In this document: positions 3,250-52,938 of the stretch, piece after piece
How positions within the stretch are numbered: the stretch's first letter is position 1
How the letters are laid out: each line of letters starts with the position of its first letter
From: Chiloscyllium plagiosum
Lineage: Eukaryota
Reading direction: 5' to 3'
Length of the DNA stretch: 52,938 nucleotides
Assembly (NCBI RefSeq): GCF_004010195.1
Contig: NC_057718.1
Span: forward strand, 70,645,741 to 70,698,678
Position numbers and translations under genes: made by a program
The notes under the pieces: generated by a model
Told to the model about the DNA's origin: nothing
What the model saw: only the letters and a program-made list of their open reading frames with translations
The model's database searches: none

Positions 3250-5560
3250 TCCCTTTGGAAGGGGGCTGTGTCCTCGATGGACAGGTGGCAACTGCACCAG
3301 AATTGTAGGAAGGTTTCAAGTGCTTTTGGAGTGGGTTTAAACTAATTTTGCAGGGGTGTATGTCCGGAGGAAAGTTTCAACAGGGGTAATGTTAGCTAAA
3401 ATTAGAAGAGGCAGCAATGAGTCAGGAAGGCATAGACATTATAGGTGCCAGTTAAGACACAAGGGAGTTTGGCAAGGTTGGATAGTATTTACTTTAATGC
3501 AAGAACATTGACAGATAAAACATGGGAGCATGATATCACTGCTGTTGCTGAGAAATGGTTGAGAGAAGGCCGAGATTGGCAGCTCACTATTCCAGCATAC
3601 TGGGTTTTCAGGCAATAAAATGACAGAGACAAAAGAGGATGAAGGGTTGCAATTTTGATCAGGGGATCTATTACATCATTAAGGAGGATGACATCTTAGT
3701 AACTGTTCAGAGAGTGAAAGAATTAGTGATAACTCTTTCTGGAATAAATTGTTTCCTGAGATAAAAGGGATAAGGACAACCTGTTACAAAGGAATTAAAA
3801 GCACCATAACAATTCTTCCTTGGGAAAAGCAACATAAACAAACCGTTTTCTGTAAGAGAGGAAGTAACAGCTGCTTGATAGTTGGCTATTATATGCCACA
3901 AGGACATAGGATTGCCCTGCAGAAGAATTTAAAGGAGTTAACAGCAGTAGTCTGTGTTTTGAACTGATGGCTAACACCAAATGTGACAAGGAACAGAGAA
4001 GCCACTCCTGATAAGACGGCAAGTGATAGACTCAGTTGAAATTGTAGCTAAATTACACCATTAATCGGTAACGGCTGAGCTGGGAAGTGCAGCTTAATTT
4101 ACATACTTGAGGGAACTTATTTTGTTTTAAAGTTGAAATAATTGTGTCAGCATTTGATTGTACATGGGTTTTATTTTAATAAGTAGTTTAATTAAAGGTA
4201 GCTTGTGGTAGTTTATGCACAAAGCCCTGAGTAGAAAAAAGGCAAAAACCAAAAAGGAGCAATCACACTGCTGGGAGTGTACTATAGGCTCCATTACAGT
4301 CTGAGAGAAAAACAAGAGCAGATATGTCGGCAAACTTCAGGAAAGTTAAATGTAATAGGCTAATGATAATAGGGGATTTCAACCTTCCCAACATTAATGA
4401 TGGTAGTCAGCGTGAGAAGGAGCAGAATTTTTAAAATGCATCAAGGACAGTGTTTTAAGCCAGTACATTGAAGGCCATACAAGGCTGGGGGGGGGGATGT
4501 AGCTGGGCAAGTAGCTGAAACCTTAGCAGGGAAGCAGTTTTCAGGCAGCATACATAATCCTGTTGGACTCAGGACTATTATGGAAAAAGACAAGGATGGA
4601 CCTGAAATCAAAAGTTCTCAACCTCAAAGCTTATTTTAATAAGATTAGATGGGATTTAGCCAGAATACTCAGGCAGCAGATAATTTCAGGTAGATCTCAA
4701 TCTCAGAACAGTGGGATGCATTCAAGAAGGAAATATAGACAGTACAGTGACAATATGTTTTAAGTGAACAAAAAGGGTGAGACCATCAAAATTCTATGAA
4801 TGCTGGATATCAAGAGATATTCATAGTCATAGAGATGTACAGCATGGAAACAGACCCCTCGGTCCAACCCTTCCATCGACCAGATATCCCAACCCAATCA
4901 AGTCCCACCTGCCAGCACCCGGCCCATATCCCTCCAAACCCTTCCTATTCATCTACCCATCCAAATGCCTTTTAAATGTTGCAAATTGTACCAGCCTCCA
5001 CTACTTCCTCTGGCAGCTCATTCCATACACGTATCACTCTCTGTGTGAAAAAGTTGCTCCTTAGGTCTCTTTTATATCTTTCCCCTCTCACCCTAAACCT
5101 ATGCCCTCTAGTTTTGGACTCCCCCACTCAGGGAAAAGACTTTGTTTATTTATCCTATTCATACCCCTCATGATTTTATAAACCTCTATAAGGTCACCCC
5201 TCAGCCTCCAACACTCCAGGGAAAACAGCCCCAGCCTGTTCAGCCTGTCCTTATAACTCAAATCCTCAGTATTGGGTTAAGAGAAAAGAAAGGCTTATTA
5301 GAGCTCAAAACAACAGAATCCCTGGAGGAGTATAGATGTGCATGAGGGAATTTGAAAAAGAGAGTTAAAAGGGGCATGAAAAGATACTGTTAGCTCAAAT
5401 TAAGAAAAATTCTAAGATGTTTTACAGGTACATTAAAAAGGATAAGAATGGGAACAGTTGGATCCATTATGGACCACACTGATAATTTGTTGGTAGAACC
5501 AGAGGATGTAGATAGAGTTATAAATGAATACTTTGTGCTGGTATTCACTCGTTGGAAGAC
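3250..5560 (+). mobile_element. Decayed CR1 ORF1 end/ORF2 endonuclease, with a nested minus CR1 3' end at about 4820-5267
   Basis: gggtttaaactaa junction; YFNAR-like, GDFN and GVYYR motifs. Confidence 0.8.
3704..4220. mobile_element. Unclassified insertion (LTR-like) interrupting a CR1 endonuclease region
   Basis: CR1 endonuclease-like sequence stops at about 3703 and resumes at about 4221. The insert has TGT...ACA ends. Confidence 0.35.
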
Positions 5561-6365: not shown

Positions 6366-7740
6366 GTAGGTACTATCCTTTGTAAGGAAGATTGAGAATC
6401 CTGCATAGTATATTGCCTGCTCAGTGCCGTGGTGTGTGACACCTCTGACTGGCTTGAGAAGGAGGGGCAGGATCCAGCTGTTGTGGTCCATGTTGGGACT
6501 AACATCATAGGTAAGGCTAGGAAGAAGGGATTATTCAGGAACTGGGAACCAAATTAAAGAACAGGTCCTCAAAAGGGTCATTACCTCTGGATTAATGCCT
6601 GAGCCACGTGCAAATTGGCATAGGACGTGAGAATAAGGGAAGTAAACATGTGGCTAAAAGAATGGTGCAGGAAAGAGGGCTTCCTTTTCATGGGACACTA
6701 GCATCAGTATTGGAGTGGGAGGGATCTGTACCATTGGAATGGTTTATATCTGAACCAAGCTGGGGCCAGTGTTCTAGCAAAAGGGTAAATGGGGTGGTCA
6801 ACAGTACTTTTAACTAGGAAGTGGGGGGAAGGAAAGGGTAAAACTCTGAGAAGTATAATAACCAATGGGAAGCAACACTGCAGGTTAACATTTGTGGGGG
6901 TGGATTCAACTGCAATAAAAAGCATGAAACAAATGAAAAGACAGGAGAACTCAGCAGAGGTTATTAAGTCTTCAGCACACAAAACAGAGTGTTTGTAAAA
7001 GGTTAGGAATCACACTTCAAACACACTGGATAAATGGATAACAATAAGAAGAGAGAAGGTCTATACAGAATTGAAGGTATTGTATCTGAATGCGCACAGT
7101 GTACAAAATAAGGTAAATGAGCTTGTGGCGCAGATCAAAATTGGCAGGTAAGTTGTGGTGGGCATCATGGAGACGTGGTTGCAAGGAGATAAGGACTGGG
7201 AGTGAAATATCTAATGATATGCATCCTATCAAAAAGACAGGCAGAGGGGAAAGGGTTGCCTTGTTAGTAAAAAATTAGATTAGATTACTTACAGTGTGGA
7301 AACAGGTCCTTCGACCCAACAAGTCCACACCGACCCTCCAAAGAGCAACCCACCCAGACCCATTTATCCTTTCACCTAACACTACGGGCAATTTAGCATG
7401 GCCAATTCACTTAACCTGCACATTTTTGGACTGTGGGAGGAAACCGGAGCACCCGGAGGAAACCCACGCTGACAGGGGGAGAATGTGCAAATTACACACA
7501 GACAGTTGACTGAGGCGGGATATGAACCCGGGTCTCTGGCGCTGTGAGGCAGCAGTGCTACTGTGCCACTGTGCCGCCCCAATTAAATTAAATTTATAGC
7601 AATAAAAGAAGTAGGATCAGATAATGTGGAATCTGAGTGGGTAGAGTTGAGGAACAAGAATAGTAAAAAAACATAATGAGAGTTATCCATAGGCCTCCAA
7701 ACAGTAGTCAAGATATGGGCCATAGGACACACCAAGAGCA
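6366..7740 (+). mobile_element. Decayed CR1 ORF1 esterase/ORF2 start
   Basis: VVVHVGTNII-like and LYLNAHSV-like motifs; interrupted by a SINE. Confidence 0.78.
7275..7580 (-). mobile_element. HE1-like SINE
   Basis: Reverse complement of the same family. Confidence 0.9.
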
Positions 7741-39037: not shown

Positions 39038-40524
39038 TTCTTCTTTCTCTTGACAAGAGCTTCAACTTCTTTAGTAAACCACAGCTGCCTCGGTTGAACA
39101 CTTCTTCCCTGTCTGACAGGTACATACTTATCAAGGACCCATAGCAGCTGTTCCTTGAATAAGCTTCACATTTCAAGTGTGTCCATCCCCTGCAATTTCC
39201 ATCCTATGCATCCTAAATGTTGCCTAATCGCATCATAATTGCCTTTCCCCCAGTTATAACTATTTCCCTATACAATATATATACCTATCCCTGCACATTG
39301 CTATTGTAAACATAATCAAATTGTGGTCACTATTCTAAAGTGCTCACTTACCTCCAAACTAACACCTGGCTGGGTTCATTTCCCAGTACCAAATCCAATG
39401 TGGCATCGCCCCTTGCTGGTTTGTCGGCATACTGTGTCAGGAAACCCTCCTGCACACCTTGGACAAAAACTGATCCATCTCAACGACTTGAACAATAGTA
39501 TTCCCTGTCAATATAGGAGAAGTTAAAGTCCCCATAGCAACTACCTTGTTACTCTCACTCCTATTGAGAATCATCTTTGCTATCTTTCCTCTGCATCCCT
39601 GGAACAATTCGGAAGCCTATAGAAAACTTCCAACAGGGTTTCCTTTCTTTTCCTGTTTCTAACCTCAGCCCAAACTACCTCAGTGGATGAGTCCTCAAAT
39701 GTTATCTCAGCTGCTGTAATACTACCCTTGATTAACAATGCCACAGCGGCCCCCCTTTTACCATCTTCTCTGTTAGAACATAGAACATAGAACAATACAG
39801 CACAGAACAGGGTATTCCGCATTCTTATTTGTTCTTCCAAAATGGACAACCTCACACTTGGCAGGGTTGAACTCCATCTGCCACTCCTCAGGCAGATGTT
39901 CTTACTGAAACATTTAAATCCCGGAATCTGCAACAACCATTCCTGTCCCTCCTCTAGCCATGTCTCTGAAATGGCCATAACATCAAAATCCAAGGTATCA
40001 ACCCATGCTGCAAGTTCACCCACCTTGGTCTGGATGCTCCTGACATTGAAGTACACACATTTCAAACCAACATCTTGATTGGCAGTGTCCTCTTGCAACC
40101 TAGTAAACTTTTCCCTGACCTCACTGCCCTCAACCTCCTGTACACTGGAACTACAATTCAGGTTTCCATCCCCCGAGTGATCTTAGTCAATGTTTGCAAA
40201 GTTGAAATTCCCAACAATTATCACCCTATTTCTCTCTCATCTTTCCGTGATTTGCCTACATATCTGTTCCTCTATCCTCCTCTTACTGTTGGGAGGCCTC
40301 TAGTCTAATCCCAGCAAAATAATCACAGCCTTTCTTATTTCTAAGATATACTCAGATGGGGCTCATTTGAAAACCCCCTGGGATATCTTTCCTCATTACT
40401 GCTAATGGTGGTTTCCTTTATCAATAATGCAATGGCCCTATCTCTCTTACAGCTTCCCAATTTATGCCTGAAACCTTCAAACCCTGGAATGTTGAGTGCC
40501 AGTTCTGTCCTTCCTTCAACCATA

Positions 40525-40851: not shown

Positions 40852-41269
40852 TCAGTGATTGCAACAATATAATTCCCACGTGCTGATCAACACTAAGTTC
40901 ATCCGCAGTCACGTTCCTTGCATTAAAATAGATATAACTTAGCTTTCCAGGTGTATCTGTGTGCCTTATCAAGCCCATGTCTTCTACTCCTGCTGGACTG
41001 TCCTTGCTCCCGACTTTATATCTTCTCTGTGCTCTTGTCAAATTAGTTTGAAACCTCCCCAACAACACGAACAAACCTCCCAGCAAGGATACTGGATCCA
41101 TTCCAGTTCAGGTGAAACCTGTCAAGCTTGTACATCACATCTACCCTAGAAATCGTCCAAATAATCCAAAAAACTAAAGTCCTCACTTCTACACCATCCC
41201 TTTTAGCTACACCTACATCTGACCTATCTTCTTATTCGTATACTCAGTACCATGAGTATAGATATCTAT

Positions 41270-46764: not shown

Positions 46765-49700
46765 GAGTCATAGAGTCATAGAGCACAGAAACAGACCTTT
46801 TGGTCAACCCGTCCATGCCGACCAGATATCCTAAACCAATCTAGTCCTACCTGACAGCATCCAGCCCACATCCCTCCAAACCTTTCCTATTCATATACCC
46901 ATCCAGATGCCTTTTAAATGTTGCAATTGCACAAGCCTCCACCACATCCTCTGGCAGCTCATTCCATACACGTACCACCCTCTGCATGAAAAAGTTGCCC
47001 CTTAGGTCTCTTTTATATCTTTCCCCTCTCAACCTAAACCTATGCCCTCTAATTCTGGACTCCCCCACCCCAGGGAAGAAGACTTTGTCTATTTAACATA
47101 CTCATGCCCCTCATGATTTTATAAATCACTGTAAGGTCAACCTCAGACATCCCATGGAAAACAGCCCCAGCCTGTTTAGCCTCTCCTTTAGCTCAAATCC
47201 TCCAACCCTGGCAACATCCTTGTAAATCTTTTCTGTACCCTTTCAAGTTTCACAACATCCTTCTGATAGGAAAAAGACCAGAATTGCGCACAATATTCCA
47301 ACAGTGGCCTAACCAATGTCCTGTACAGCCGCAACATGACCTCCCAACTCCTATACTCAATACTCTGACCAATAAAAGAATGCATACCAAACACCTTCTT
47401 CACTATCCTATCTACCTGCAACTCCACTTTCAAGGAGCTATAAACCTGCACTCCAAGGTCTATTTGTTCAGCAACACTCCCTAGGACCTTACCATCAAGT
47501 CCTGCTAAAATTTGTTTCCCAAAATGCAGCACCTCAGATTTATCTAAATTAAACTCCATCTGCCACTTCTCGGCCCATTGGCCCGTCTGATCAAGATCCC
47601 ATTGTAATCTGAGGTAACATTCTTTGCTGTCCACTACACCTCCAATTTTGCTCACCCTTTCTAGCCCTCTGATTATCTTATATGTCTCAATTAAGTCACC
47701 TCTCAACCTTCTTCTCTCTAACAAAAATGAGCTCAAGTTCCTCAGCCTTTCCTCATAAGACTTTCCCTCCATACCAGGCAACATCCGAGGAAAACTCCTC
47801 TGAACCCTTTCCAAAATTTCCACATTCTTCATATAATGCGGTGACCAGAATTATATGCAATACTCCAAGTGCAGCCGCACCAGAGTTTTGGAGCACTGCA
47901 ACATGACCTCATGGGTCCAAAACTCAAACCTTCTACAAATAAAGGCTAACACACCTTATGCCTTCTTAACTACCTTATCAACCTGGGTGGCAACTTTCAG
48001 GGATTTATGGACATGAACACCGAGATCTCTCTGCTCATCTACACTACCAGGAATCTTACCACTAGCCCAGCGCTCTTTATTCCTGTTGCTCCGTCCGAAG
48101 TGAATCATCTCACACTTTTCCACATCAAATTCCATTTGCTACCTCTCTGCCCAGCTCTGCAGCTTATCTATGCCCCTCTGTGACCTGCGACATCCTTTGG
48201 CATTATCCACAACTCCACCAACCTTAGTCTCATCTGCAAATTTCCCAATAACTCATCTGTCTACGTCCTCATCCAGGTCATTTATAAAAATGACATACAG
48301 CAGTGGTTCTAAAACAGATCCTTGCAGTACACCACTAGTAACTGAACTCCAGGATAAGCATTTCCCATCAACCACCATCCTCTGTCTTCTTTCAGTTAGC
48401 TAATTTCTGATCCAAACCACTAAATTACCCTCAATCCAATGCCTCCATATTTTGTGCAATAGCCTACCATGGGGAACCATATCAAATGTCTTACTGAAAT
48501 CCATACAAACCACATCAACCAGTTTACCCTCATCTACCTGTTTGGTCACCTTCTCAAAGGAGAAAGTGAGGTCTGCAGATGCTGGAGATCAAAGTTGAAA
48601 CTTTATTGCTGGAACAGCACAGCAGGTCAGGCAGCATCCAGGGTACAGGAGATTTGACGTTTCGGGCACAGGCCCTTCTTCAGGAAGAAGGGCCTGTGCC
48701 CGAAACGTCGAATCTCCTGTACCCTGGATGCTGCCTGACCTGCTGTGCTGTTCCAGCAATAAAGTTTCAACCACCTTCTCAAAGAACTCAATAAGGTTTG
48801 TGAGGCACGACCTACCCTTCACAAAACCGTGTTGACTATCCCTAATCAACCTATTCCTTTTTTGATGATTATAAATCCTATCACTTATAACCTTTTCCAA
48901 CACTTTACCCACAACCGAGGTAAGGCTCACTGGGTTTTCTCTACTCCCCTTCTTGAACAAGGGTACACCATTTGCTATCCTCCAGTCTTCTTGCACTATT
49001 CCTGTAGACAATGACGACATAAGGATCAAAGCCAAAGGCTCTGCAATCTTCTCCTTAATCTTACTCTAGTCATTCTTTTATTTCTGACATACCTATAGAA
49101 GGTTTTAGGGTTTTATTGATCCTATCTGCCAATGACTTGTCATGTCCCCTCTTGTCCTTCTTCGCGCTCTCTATAGGTCTTTCCTGGCTAACTGGTAACT
49201 CTCAAGCCCCCTAACTGAGCCTTCACATTTCATCCTAACATAAGCCTTCTTCTTCCTCTTGACAAGAGATTTAGCTTCTTTAGTAAACCACGGGTCCTTA
49301 GCTCAACCACTTCCTCCCTGCCTTACAGGTACATACTTATCAAGGATACGCAGAAGCTGTTCCTTGAATAAGCTCCACATTTCAATTGTGCACATTCCCT
49401 GCAGTTTCTTTCCCCATCCTATGCGTCCTAAATCTTGTCTACTCGCATCATAATTGCATTTCCCCAGCTATAACTCTTGCCCTGTGGTATATACCTAGCC
49501 CTTTCCATCGCTAAAGTAAACACAACCAAATTGTGGTCACAACCTCAAATCTAACACCTGGCTGGGTTCATTACACACTACCAAATCCAATGTGGCCTCA
49601 CCCCTTGTTGTCTATCTACATACTGTGTCAGAAAACCCTCCTGCACATATTGGACAAAAACTGATCCATCTAAAGTACTCGAATGATAGTATTTCCAGTC

Positions 49701-50750
49701 AATATTTGGACAGTTAAAAAACCCCTGTTACTCTCACTCCTATCCAGAATCATCTTTGTTATCCTTTCCTCTACATCTCTGAACAGGGTGACGTCTCCTT
49801 TCCTGTTTCTAACCTCAGTCCATACTACCTCATTAGATGAGTCCTCAAACATCCATTCTGCCACTGTAACACTGTCCTTAATTAACAAGGCCACGCCTTC
49901 CCCTCTTTTATCATCCTCTCTGGGTTCTTATTGATTTATCTAAATCCCAGAACCTGCAACAACCAAAATGTCCCTCCAAAATGGTCACAATATTGAAGTC
50001 CCAGGTACCAACCCATGCTGCAAGTTCACCCAACTTATTCTTAACGCTCCTGGCATTCAAGACATACTCCAAATCACCTTCCTGCTTGCCGGTGTACTCT
50101 TGCAACTTTGAAACCTTATTTCTGACCTCACTACTCTCAACCTCCTGGACACTGAAGCTACATTTAGATTCCCAACCCGATGCTGAATTAGTTTAAACCC
50201 TTTCAAAGAGTATAAGCAAACCACCCTGCCCCGGCAAGGATATTGGCACCCCTCTGTTTCGGGTGAAGACTATCCTGTTTGTAGAGGTCCCACCTACCCC
50301 AGAATAAGCCCCAATTATCCAGGTATCTGAAACCCTCCCTCCTCCATCATCCCTGTAGCCACATGTTCAACTCCTCTCTCTCCCTATTCCTCACCTCACT
50401 AGCACGTGGCATGAGTAACAAACCAGAAATAACAACTCTGTTTGTTCTACCTCTAAGATTCCACCCTAGCTCCCTGGATTTCTGCCTTAAATCCCCATCC
50501 CTTTTCCTACCTATATCGTTAGTGCCTATGTGGACTACAACTTGGGGCTGCTCCCCCTCCTCCTCAAGGATCTTGAAAACACGATACGAGACATCACAAA
50601 CCCTGGCATCTGGGAGGCAACACACCAATTGTGAGAATCTCTCATTCCCACAGAACCTACTATCTTTCTCCCTAACTATGGAGTCCCTAGTAACTAATGC
50701 TCTGCTCCTCTCCCCCTTCCCTTCTGAGCAACAGGGACAGACTCTGTAAG
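46765..50750 (-). mobile_element. Decayed CR1 LINEs (at least two copies joined near 47650; ORF1 remnant through 3' tail)
   Basis: Fragmentary ORFs with RT, endonuclease and esterase motifs (QHGFVKGRSCLTNLIEFF, VVHIGTNDIG, YRTLVRPLLEYC) and a (TCTATGAC)-type tail at the left end. Confidence 0.88.
48560..48771. mobile_element. Penelope-derived hairpin element with hammerhead core
   Basis: Inverted arms of about 85 bp centred at about 48683; 13-bp TSD caccttctcaaag; the minus strand carries CUGAAGA-A-GGGC cugu GCCC-GAAACGUC. Confidence 0.85.
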
Positions 50751-51150
50751 TCATCCTCCCCAACATTTTTGAGTGCGAGCAGCAGCTGAGTTTAAACGAA
50801 CCCGGAAGGCTACAGCTAAGGTGAGACAGTTTGTTTTAAAATTACTTACCGGTAGCGGGCAGCGGTGTTTTTTTTTCTCTTCACAGAAAGAGTGGGAGCA
50901 GCAGGGGGAAGTGACGACGACCAGAGGGGCAGCTGGAAGCTGGTGTAGCACAAGCTTACCTGGGTAGGTTTTATTTCCTATAAAAGCGCGCAGGAGAAGA
51001 ACCCAAGGCACTACAGAGGTAGTGCCTCCCACCCTCCCTCCTCCTCTAACCTAATAATAAGGCCCGTTGTGGTAAGTAGGTAAGTGCTGCATTTTGCTTG
51101 TTCTATTCTTTAGACCTATTTTTTTTTTTTAATAGGTTACTTTTAGAGGG

Positions 51151-52071
51151 ATGGCAGTGAAGGCAGTGCAATGTTCCTCTTGCAACATGTTTGAGGTGAG
51201 GGATGCCATGGTTGTCCCTGCTGATTACACTTGCAGGAAGTGCACCCATCTCCAGCTCCTCCAAGACCGTGTTAGGGAACTGGAGCTGGAGTTGGATGAA
51301 CTTAGGATCATTCGGGAGGCAGAGGGGGTCATAGATCGGAGCTTTAGGGAAGTAGTAACTCCAAAGATTGCAGACAGATGGGTGACAGTGAGGGGGACTG
51401 GGAGGAAGCAGCCAGTGCAGGGACCCCCTTCGGCCGTTCCCATCAAGAACAAGTATACCGTTTTGGATACTTGTGGGGGGGACGACTTACCAGGGGTAAG
51501 TAACGGGGCTCAGGCCTCTGGCACGGAGCCTGTCCCCATTGCTCAGAAAGGAAGGGTGGAGAAGAGCAGAGCAATAGTTATTGGGGACGCGATAGTTCGT
51601 GGCACAGATAGGCGGTTCTGTGGGGGCGAGAGAGACTCACGTTTGGTATGTTGCCTCCCAAGTGCAAGGGTACGTGACGTCTCTGATCGTGTTTTCCGGG
51701 TCCTTAAGGGGGAGGGGGAGCAGCCCGAAGTCGTGGTCCACATTGGCACCAACGACATAGGTAGGAGGAGGGCTGAGGATGTTAGACAGGCTTTCAGGGA
51801 GCTAGGTTGGAAGCTCAGAGTTAGAACAAACAGAGTCTCTGGTTTGTTACCCGTGCCACGTGATAGAGAGACGAGGAATAGGGAGAGAGAACAGTTAAAT
51901 GCATGGCTACAGGGATGGTGCAGGAGGGAGCGATTCCGGTATCTGGATAACTGGGGTTCTTTCTGGGGAAGATGGGACCTCTATAAACAGGATGGTTTGC
52001 ACCTGAACCTGAGGGGCACCAGTACCCTTGGTGGGAGGTTTGCTAGTGCTCTTGGGGGGGGTTTAAACTAA
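51151..52071 (+). CDS. CR1 ORF1 protein (zinc finger, coiled coil, SGNH esterase-like domain)
   Basis: 306 aa with CSSC...CRKC, a heptad-like LQDRVRELELELDEL, and SGNH blocks VIGDAIVR, VHIGTNDI and DGLHLN. Confidence 0.9.
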   Translation: MAVKAVQCSSCNMFEVRDAMVVPADYTCRKCTHLQLLQDRVRELELELDELRIIREAEGVIDRSFREVVTPKIADRWVTVRGTGRKQPVQGPPSAVPIKNKYTVLDTCGGDDLPGVSNGAQASGTEPVPIAQKGRVEKSRAIVIGDAIVRGTDRRFCGGERDSRLVCCLPSARVRDVSDRVFRVLKGEGEQPEVVVHIGTNDIGRRRAEDVRQAFRELGWKLRVRTNRVSGLLPVPRDRETRNREREQLNAWLQGWCRRERFRYLDNWGSFWGRWDLYKQDGLHLNLRGTSTLGGRFASALGGGLN

Positions 52072-52938
52072 CTCTGCAGGGGCATGGGAACCCAGACTGT
52101 AGCTTTAGGGTGCAGAACCTGGAGTGTAGGGAGGTTAGGAACATGGCAATAATTTCCAAGGAGGGTGTCTGTAAACAGGAAAGTGGCTTGAAGTGTGTAT
52201 ACTTCAATGCAAGAAGTATACGAAATAAGGCAGGTGAACTTGCAGCGTGGGTTGGTACCTGGGACTTCAATGTTGTGGCTATTACGGAGACATGGGTAGA
52301 ACAGGGACAGGATTGGCTGTTGCAGGTCCCAGGGTTTAAATGTTTTAGTAGGGTCAGAGATGGGGGTAAAAGAGGGGGAGGTGTGGCATTGCTTGTCAAA
52401 GATAATATTACAGTGGTGGAAAGGACGATGGATGAGGACTTGCCATCTGAGGTAGTTTGGGCTGAGGTTAGGAATAGGAAAGGCGAGGTCACCCTGTTAG
52501 GAGTCTTTTACAGGCCTCCAAATAGTCCTAGAATCATTGAAGAAAGGATAGGGAAGGTGATCCAGGAGATGAGTGACAGTAATAGGGTGGTTGTTATGGG
52601 GGACTTTAACTTTCCTGATATTGATGGGGAAAGCTATAGCTCAAGTTCGTTAGATGGGTCAGTGTTTGTTCAATGTGTGCAGGAGAGTTTCCTGACACAA
52701 TATGTAGACAGGCCAACAAGAGGTGAGGCCATACTGGATTTGGTTCTGGGTAACGAACCAGGCCAGGTGTTAGAATTAGAGGTAGGTGAGCAATTTGGGG
52801 ACAGTGACCACAGTTCGGTGACTTTTACTCCAGTGATGGAGAGGGATAAGAGTGCACTACAGGGCAAGAGTTATAGCTGGAGTCAGGGAAATTGTGATGC
52901 GGTGAGGCATGACTTAGGATGCGTGGCTTGGAAAAGTA
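52068..52938 (+). CDS. CR1 ORF2 N-terminus (APE endonuclease), partial; open from 52068, first ATG at 52143
   Basis: Manual translation: LKCVYFNARSIRNK...AITETW...GGGVALLVK...GVFYRPP...MGDFNFPDI...PTRGEAILDLVL...GDSDH, with no stop before the window end. Confidence 0.88.

Follow-up and report, generated by a model that had tools for sequence, protein, structure and literature searches.

How ORF2 is translated from the bicistronic RNA of LINEs is a long-standing question, which has been answered mainly for elements of the L1 type, by reinitiation; in the silkworm element SART1 the ORF junction is a UAAUG overlap. As to frameshifting in viruses, the slippery site between coronavirus 1a and 1b is U_UUA_AAC. 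Heptamers for -1 frameshifting are defined by the X_XXY_YYZ phase, according to PMC3542737, and a large review of the subject describes -1 frameshifting at gag-pol of LTR elements (PMC5009743). For the LINEs TRE5-A and TRE3-A of Dictyostelium a review states that ORF2 is expressed by a -1 frameshift (PMC5911963), and in the account given by PMC1965478 the ORFs of L1 and Zorro3 do not overlap, Zorro3 needing its AUG. In most vertebrates the dominant retrotransposons are, according to the main text of a 2026 survey, CR1-group elements, which account for 22-34% of the genome in sharks and rays (PMC13343379).

The stretch of DNA analyzed here (the window, 52,938 nucleotides from Chiloscyllium plagiosum) carries at about 50.9-52.9 kb the 5' part of a CR1 LINE, the ORF2 of which is quite probably translated by programmed -1 frameshifting on U_UUA_AAC, giving an ORF1-ORF2 fusion. 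ORF1 (51151..52071, plus strand; 306 aa and a stop) encodes a Cys-rich N-terminus, a predicted coiled-coil-like stretch, an SGNH/GDSL esterase (PF13472, E 2.6e-10) and a Leu-Asn-stop end. Its 3' end is GGT TTA AAC TAA, which places U_UUA_AAC (52062..52068) in the X_XXY_YYZ phase directly before the UAA stop (52069..52071); an earlier sequence-only reading had reported this arrangement, and reading the sequence confirmed it. The claimed continuity of the -1 frame into the endonuclease likewise held. The last stop of this frame (52044..52046) closes it five codons 5' of the heptamer, with no AUG in between, and from 52047 it is open to the end of the window. Within it lies the Pfam match Exo_endo_phos (PF03372, E 1.3e-17), i.e., the APE-type endonuclease domain of ORF2 (52200..52811), whose frame runs beyond the window end. 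The -1-frame linker from the heptamer to the endonuclease (52068..52205) contains an in-frame ATG (52143..52145) in the strong context AACATGG.

The esterase-type ORF1 (PF13472) is the canonical architecture of vertebrate CR1, as described in the main text of PMC13343379, and is present here together with an ORF2 bearing the APE endonuclease (PF03372, PF14529), a feature of the CR1 clade. Among the matches listed, the closest named relatives of ORF1 come from sharks and rays. No reverse transcriptase motif was readable in the full-length copies fetched, so that the assignment to CR1 is based on ORF1 and the endonuclease, on close RT-bearing relatives (the closest to ORF2, at 74% and 67% identity, carry PF00078) and on one tail of the repeat type. 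CR1 elements end in short tandem repeats, and the 3' end of one copy (L257) from the subfamily of the window LINE, designated A below, shows two TTCTATG units and no poly(A). The absence of poly(A) is named as a CR1 trait in the main text of PMC13343379. The window copy itself is slightly decayed: the GDS motif of its esterase reads GDA (T at 51589 in all aligned reads and contigs), and six bases present in most reads are missing at 51834.

The junction motif, TTTAAACTAA, occurs exactly at 3336 (plus strand), 50188-50197 (minus strand) and 52062, and in degenerate form at 41043 and 6808. By count alone the motif is weak (13 one-mismatch matches against 7.4 expected, with 3 of 100 shuffles reaching 13), and all five sites proved to be ORF1/ORF2 junctions of CR1 copies, in agreement with what had been read from the window alone. 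The heptamers lie at 50191..50197 (minus strand) in a copy of subfamily B, which is AUG-less, at 3336..3342 (plus strand) in a copy of the old subfamily C, with no AUG 5' of the endonuclease, and, decayed, at 41046..41052 (minus strand) in a copy of subfamily D and at 6808..6814 (plus strand) in a copy of subfamily E, which has a UAG stop. Counting in the alignment reproduced the roughly six synonymous differences noted earlier between the 52-kb and 50-kb copies upstream of the ATG. These two copies, of the sister subfamilies A (50861-52938, plus strand) and B (49408-50747, minus strand), are oriented back to back, with about 110 nt between them. The copy at 40.1 kb had also been called as a witness; it has lost the junction, its linker being joined to another endonuclease piece, and hence provides no test of the heptamer. 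In this rearranged copy (39196-40230, minus strand) an internal endonuclease piece is joined to the linker 3' of the place of the heptamer, and the start of a second endonuclease follows.

Samples of seven subfamilies (A-G) were drawn from the genome by taking the 30 best loci of one search per subfamily. For A-E the queries were DNA spanning the five window junctions (best 30 of 40-42 matches in each case); for F and G they were ORF1 proteins (best 30 of 128 and of 118, respectively). Identity between subfamilies is 41-86% over the last 49 residues of ORF1 and 43-86% at third positions. The heptamer stands in the majority sequence of all seven and is intact, in the order A to G, in 27, 20, 14, 17, 19, 22, and 27 of the best 30 loci. 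The codon before the Leu is GGT, GTT or ACT (Gly, Val or Thr), always with its final U kept, and the Leu codon is TTA in seven of seven majorities. By comparison, TTA accounts for 0 of 51 Leu codons in the flanking sequence and for 14 of 74 in a longer set from the endonuclease. Among fourfold background third positions 2 of 11 columns are invariant, among twofold ones 2 of 16. Since the residue varies while the U is constant, the Leu is always UUA and background sites are mostly variable, the constraint acts on the bases, and the heptamer is conserved beyond protein need. The ORF1 stop varies among subfamilies (TAA, TGA, TAG), and in the young subfamily G it is shifted one codon downstream, with the heptamer retained in 27 of the 30 loci (best 30 of 118). 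The loci of G (L226-L255) include many intact ORF1s and constitute a natural test of the importance of an adjacent stop. In a control whose query did not include the junction (endonuclease protein, best 30 of 150 matches), the heptamer junction was kept at 22 of 30 loci, at all 22 in the -1 phase, and the remaining eight were 5'-truncated at or behind the heptamer.

From the heptamer to a conserved endonuclease Asn the linkers of A-G measure 48, 48, 54, 54, 96, 55, and 69 codons, respectively. In six subfamilies (all but E) they contain no -1-frame stop, with 1-9 stops in each of the other frames; by base shuffling the chance of a stop-free -1 linker is 0.004-0.067 per subfamily, though subfamilies and homologues are related, and p-values here and below therefore overstate independence. 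The majority linker of E has one -1-frame stop, and the mix of codons at this position (TGA 10, CGA 5, CAA 2 of the 30 best loci) points to CpG decay as its probable origin. Among copies from the best 30 loci of each young subfamily, 29/29 are in phase in A, 23/30 in B, 17/26 in F, and 21/25 in G; in the old subfamilies most are out of phase, with 7/28 in phase in C, 9/28 in D, and 8/29 in E. The out-of-phase copies of C and D carry scattered private indels, and their indel-free copies are in phase; in F two or three copies share linker indels of +3 and +6. In E the length of the G-run varies between copies, and this subfamily was thus not counted as independent support for the phase. Variable phase, or stops between heptamer and endonuclease, in young elements had been named beforehand as evidence that would speak against frameshifting; in the young subfamilies the phase is constant and such stops are absent.

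The main competing explanation is termination-reinitiation, which we regard as unlikely: the ribosome would stop and restart nearby in the -1 frame, with an upstream UGGGA helping as in calicivirus TURBS, and ORF2p would be a separate protein. The candidate restart sites are UAAUG in F, AUU in B and D, CUG overlapping UGA in G, and the AUG at 52143 in A. The first of these speaks for reinitiation in F (L196-L225), where UAAUG directly follows the heptamer in 28 of the 30 best loci, the frameshift site and the stop-start overlap both being present; F is the only one of the seven subfamilies in which an AUG overlaps or adjoins the ORF1 stop, and the window copy has none there. The strong AUG of A speaks in the same direction. 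The sequence-only reading had described this ATG as not conserved, which holds between subfamilies and fails within A, where it is found at 29 of the 30 best loci; the same position in B reads AAG in 14, GAG in 6, ATG in 5, and GTG in 2 of the 30 best loci, a variation such as would be seen in an internal codon. Non-AUG restarts are tolerated in TURBS systems, according to PMC3542737, and the start of L1 ORF2 tolerates any sense codon (work cited in PMC1965478). UGGGA, for which a distance of 40-90 nt is characteristic of such reinitiation, is found 81-96 nt 5' of the stop in all seven majorities, but the matches are Trp-Asp codons at two places that are not homologous, and the background density of the motif is 3-7 per 1.25 kb. 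Nothing resembling a start codon is present at the stop of subfamilies A, C, and E. Reinitiation does not explain why the heptamer is invariant at synonymous sites, why it is retained in G despite the moved stop, or why the proteins of a distant clade, described below, end in Gly-Asn or Lys-Asn. It accounts for F and perhaps for A, not for the heptamer.

The subfamilies in which an AUG is missing bear on the choice between frameshifting and internal starts. In the majorities of B and C no AUG precedes the endonuclease: the first in-frame Met is codon 164 in B, 116 codons behind the conserved endonuclease Asn at 48, and codon 59 in C, five codons behind the Asn at 54. The heptamer phase and the open -1 frame are both kept across subfamilies, including these two. 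The N-termini of ORF2 proteins in databases, with predicted starts scattered over Met or Val, are gene-caller output and hence uninformative. As for selection on the stretch upstream of the ATG, for which a dN/dS check of the -1 frame had been suggested, the comparison of A with B gave 0.22 in the -1 frame against 2.69 and 0.73 in the other frames (Fisher p 0.007), and 11 of 19 differences fall at third positions (p 0.024). Judging by this one pair, the pre-AUG stretch is evolving like a -1-frame protein under purifying selection, and the signal may be older than the ATG of A. An ungapped comparison of C with D showed no selection signal in the pre-AUG stretch (dN/dS 1.09).

Protein sequences extend the comparison to other genomes. 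Of 97 ORF1 relatives listed, 62 have a complete C-terminus, and 61 of these end in Leu-Asn; they include sharks and, at 28-40% identity, rays, frogs and turtles. With profile searches added, the C-terminus was usable in 168 of 250 proteins. Of these C-termini 146 are distinct, and among them Asn is the last residue in 112 and Leu-Asn the ending in 94. Only 2 of the 94 Leu-Asn endings are preceded by a residue whose codons cannot end in U, as compared with 17% expected. Twelve of the 18 other Asn endings are Gly-Asn or Lys-Asn with Gln or Ser before, which at the protein level fits the heptamers G_GGA_AAC and A_AAA_AAC; they are confined to one distant clade and thus reflect few events. The 34 of 146 C-termini that do not end in Asn depart from the pattern and belong mostly to distant or truncated models. 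The members of a distant ORF1 clade (part of P0195-P0288) end in QGN, SGN, SKN or FFR/FFH, each compatible, as a protein sequence, with canonical slippery heptamers. Where gene models cross the junction in the -1 frame, those of a ray (P0039) and a stork (P0103, P0111) have F-K-L and those of a frog (P0101, P0105) V-K-L, and either reading requires a UUA codon. We incline, by a small degree, to the view that -1 frameshifting is ancestral and still general for ORF2p of esterase-type CR1, from sharks to frogs, turtles, and birds, the distant clade having swapped to G_GGA_AAC and A_AAA_AAC. If so, the product of esterase-type CR1 LINEs would be an ORF1-ORF2 fusion resembling Gag-Pol, and its natural stimulator would be of the G-rich, quadruplex type.

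Junction DNA from other species was obtained neither from metagenomes (13 loci, at least 599 candidates) nor from viral sequences (2 loci), prokaryote genomes (0) or plasmids (0). The metagenomic loci include a distant LINE with an esterase ORF1 and no heptamer: at one of them (L183:1570-1720) ORF1 and the endonuclease share a frame that only a single TAG interrupts, and another (L184:1040-1180) is shorter by 5 nt at this place. Two records labelled Pseudomonas aeruginosa (P0007) and Carnobacterium (P0114) are 72% and 55% identical to ORF1 and ORF2 of the window LINE and are likely shark DNA in bacterial records.

With regard to a stimulator, the earlier proposal of a stem between CUGCAG and CUGUAG had to be abandoned: this hairpin does not appear in the minimum-energy fold, the region has a z-score of -0.15 against shuffles, and the other subfamilies do not share it. 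Pseudoknot-free folding gave no subfamily a better fold than its shuffles (z -1.1 to +2.4 across the seven), and no fold significant or common to subfamilies was found downstream of the heptamer with this method, for pairing within about 800 nt. When the seven subfamilies were compared ungapped, anchored on the heptamer, the only invariant downstream positions beyond the heptamer and the next base were those of a GGGG-NNN-GGG element (52079..52088 in the window), which begins 10 nt behind the heptamer, just beyond the usual 5-9 nt, in all seven. This fixed G-rich element is, on such comparisons, a better candidate stimulator than the hairpin. A G-quadruplex is predicted in four of seven subfamilies (C, D, E, and F), with three tiers possible only in E and two in C, D, and F, and in none of A (the window's own), B, and G. 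An uncontrolled search for pairing partners of the element from -450 to +800 nt found the best duplexes at -220 or -430 in most subfamilies, as differing gapped pairings.

Gly-x-Gly recurs, in species ranging from sharks to a frog, in the peptide encoded by the -1 frame, and a need for these residues could contribute to the conservation of the G element. The recurrence also speaks for another explanation, in our estimation highly improbable, that the heptamer and the G element are kept as a signal for packaging, reverse transcription or polymerase slippage, or for the sake of Leu-Asn and Gly-x-Gly in the proteins, with ORF2 translated from linker AUGs or near-cognate codons. Linker AUGs do exist in five of the seven subfamilies, D, E, and G among them, but B and C have to do without, protein constraint fixes neither UUA nor GGG codons (GGG makes up 33 of 91 background Gly codons), and no letter is inserted at the site in the aligned RNA reads, where depth is low. 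Splicing, which we consider extremely improbable, would use CUAAC as branch point and CAG/G (52077-52080) as 3' splice site to yield an mRNA for ORF2 with an upstream start. Subfamilies A-D do contain a branch-like CURAY and a CAG/G, and F has CAG/G with an imperfect branch motif; against this, only about 8 nt separate the branch A from the AG, a pyrimidine tract is lacking, and E and G have no CAG. No joint ends there in 341 RNA reads of one raw run or in two contig sets, which is weak counter-evidence, the raw-read depth at the junction being about 6; from a second raw run no read aligned.

The proposal of an ORF1-ORF2 fusion made by -1 frameshifting, already put forward in the sequence-only reading, is thus supported by the invariance of synonymous sites, by the AUG-less subfamilies B and C and by purifying selection. 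According to the frameshift model, most ribosomes would terminate at the ORF1 stop and release ORF1p, while in a minority tRNA-Leu and tRNA-Asn on UUA-AAC would re-pair on UUU-AAA and reading would continue, with GLN-LTLQG as the predicted junction peptide. The pause would be provided by the G-rich element 10 nt downstream, possibly as a weak G-quadruplex, and perhaps also by the adjacent stop. Such frameshifting would set a low ratio of ORF2p to ORF1p and keep the enzyme attached to the ORF1p particle. In subfamily A the AUG at 52143 may be a second route to ORF2p.

If the frameshift model is true, the N-terminus of CR1 ORF2p is to be redefined as a fusion and not an AUG start, with consequences for the building of active CR1 constructs and for repeat-library annotations, and vertebrate genomes would contain a further natural frameshift site, one that is very widespread and perhaps has an unusual stimulator rich in G. 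We found no account of frameshifting in CR1 in the freely available literature; papers under subscription, including the 1997 descriptions of chicken and turtle CR1, which may mention the overlap, were outside the scope of the search. The main text of the 2026 CR1 survey (PMC13343379) does not mention frameshift, overlap or slippery, and in the available text of the large frameshifting review (PMC5009743) non-LTR elements appear only as the Drosophila telomeric HeT-A and TART, and CR1 never. Apparently, this is a known recoding mechanism unreported for a dominant vertebrate LINE clade.

Three sequence features of the canonical -1 frameshift class are found in CR1, namely an in-phase heptamer, an open -1 ORF, and conservation beyond protein need. 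Like the retroviral and LTR gag-pol junctions and that of coronaviruses, CR1 has a canonical heptamer in phase, a -1 overlap and a structural ORF that would be fused to a polymerase ORF. It differs from them in that the host is a non-LTR element, the ORF1 stop of the window copy directly follows the heptamer, a G-rich element takes the place of a predicted pseudoknot or hairpin, and no protease domain was seen in ORF1 or the endonuclease part. G-tracts placed behind UUUAAAC in reporters produced up to about 7% frameshifting, best at a spacing of 6-8 nt, as reported in PMC3919603; those quadruplexes were engineered with three tiers, whereas in CR1 only E could form three, C, D, and F two, and none is predicted for A, B, and G. 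Mammalian L1, yeast Zorro3 and silkworm SART1 resemble CR1 in their bicistronic LINE RNA and low ORF2p output, their ORF2 being translated by reinitiation or stop-start coupling, and the UAAUG of SART1 recurs in subfamily F. Unlike in L1 and Zorro3, the frames of CR1 share a conserved heptamer in their overlap, and there are AUG-less subfamilies. TRE5-A and TRE3-A, for which the -1 frameshift is taken here from the statement of the review (PMC5911963), are APE-type LINEs as CR1 is; they are, however, elements of an amoeba with another ORF1, whereas CR1 is a dominant LINE of vertebrates.
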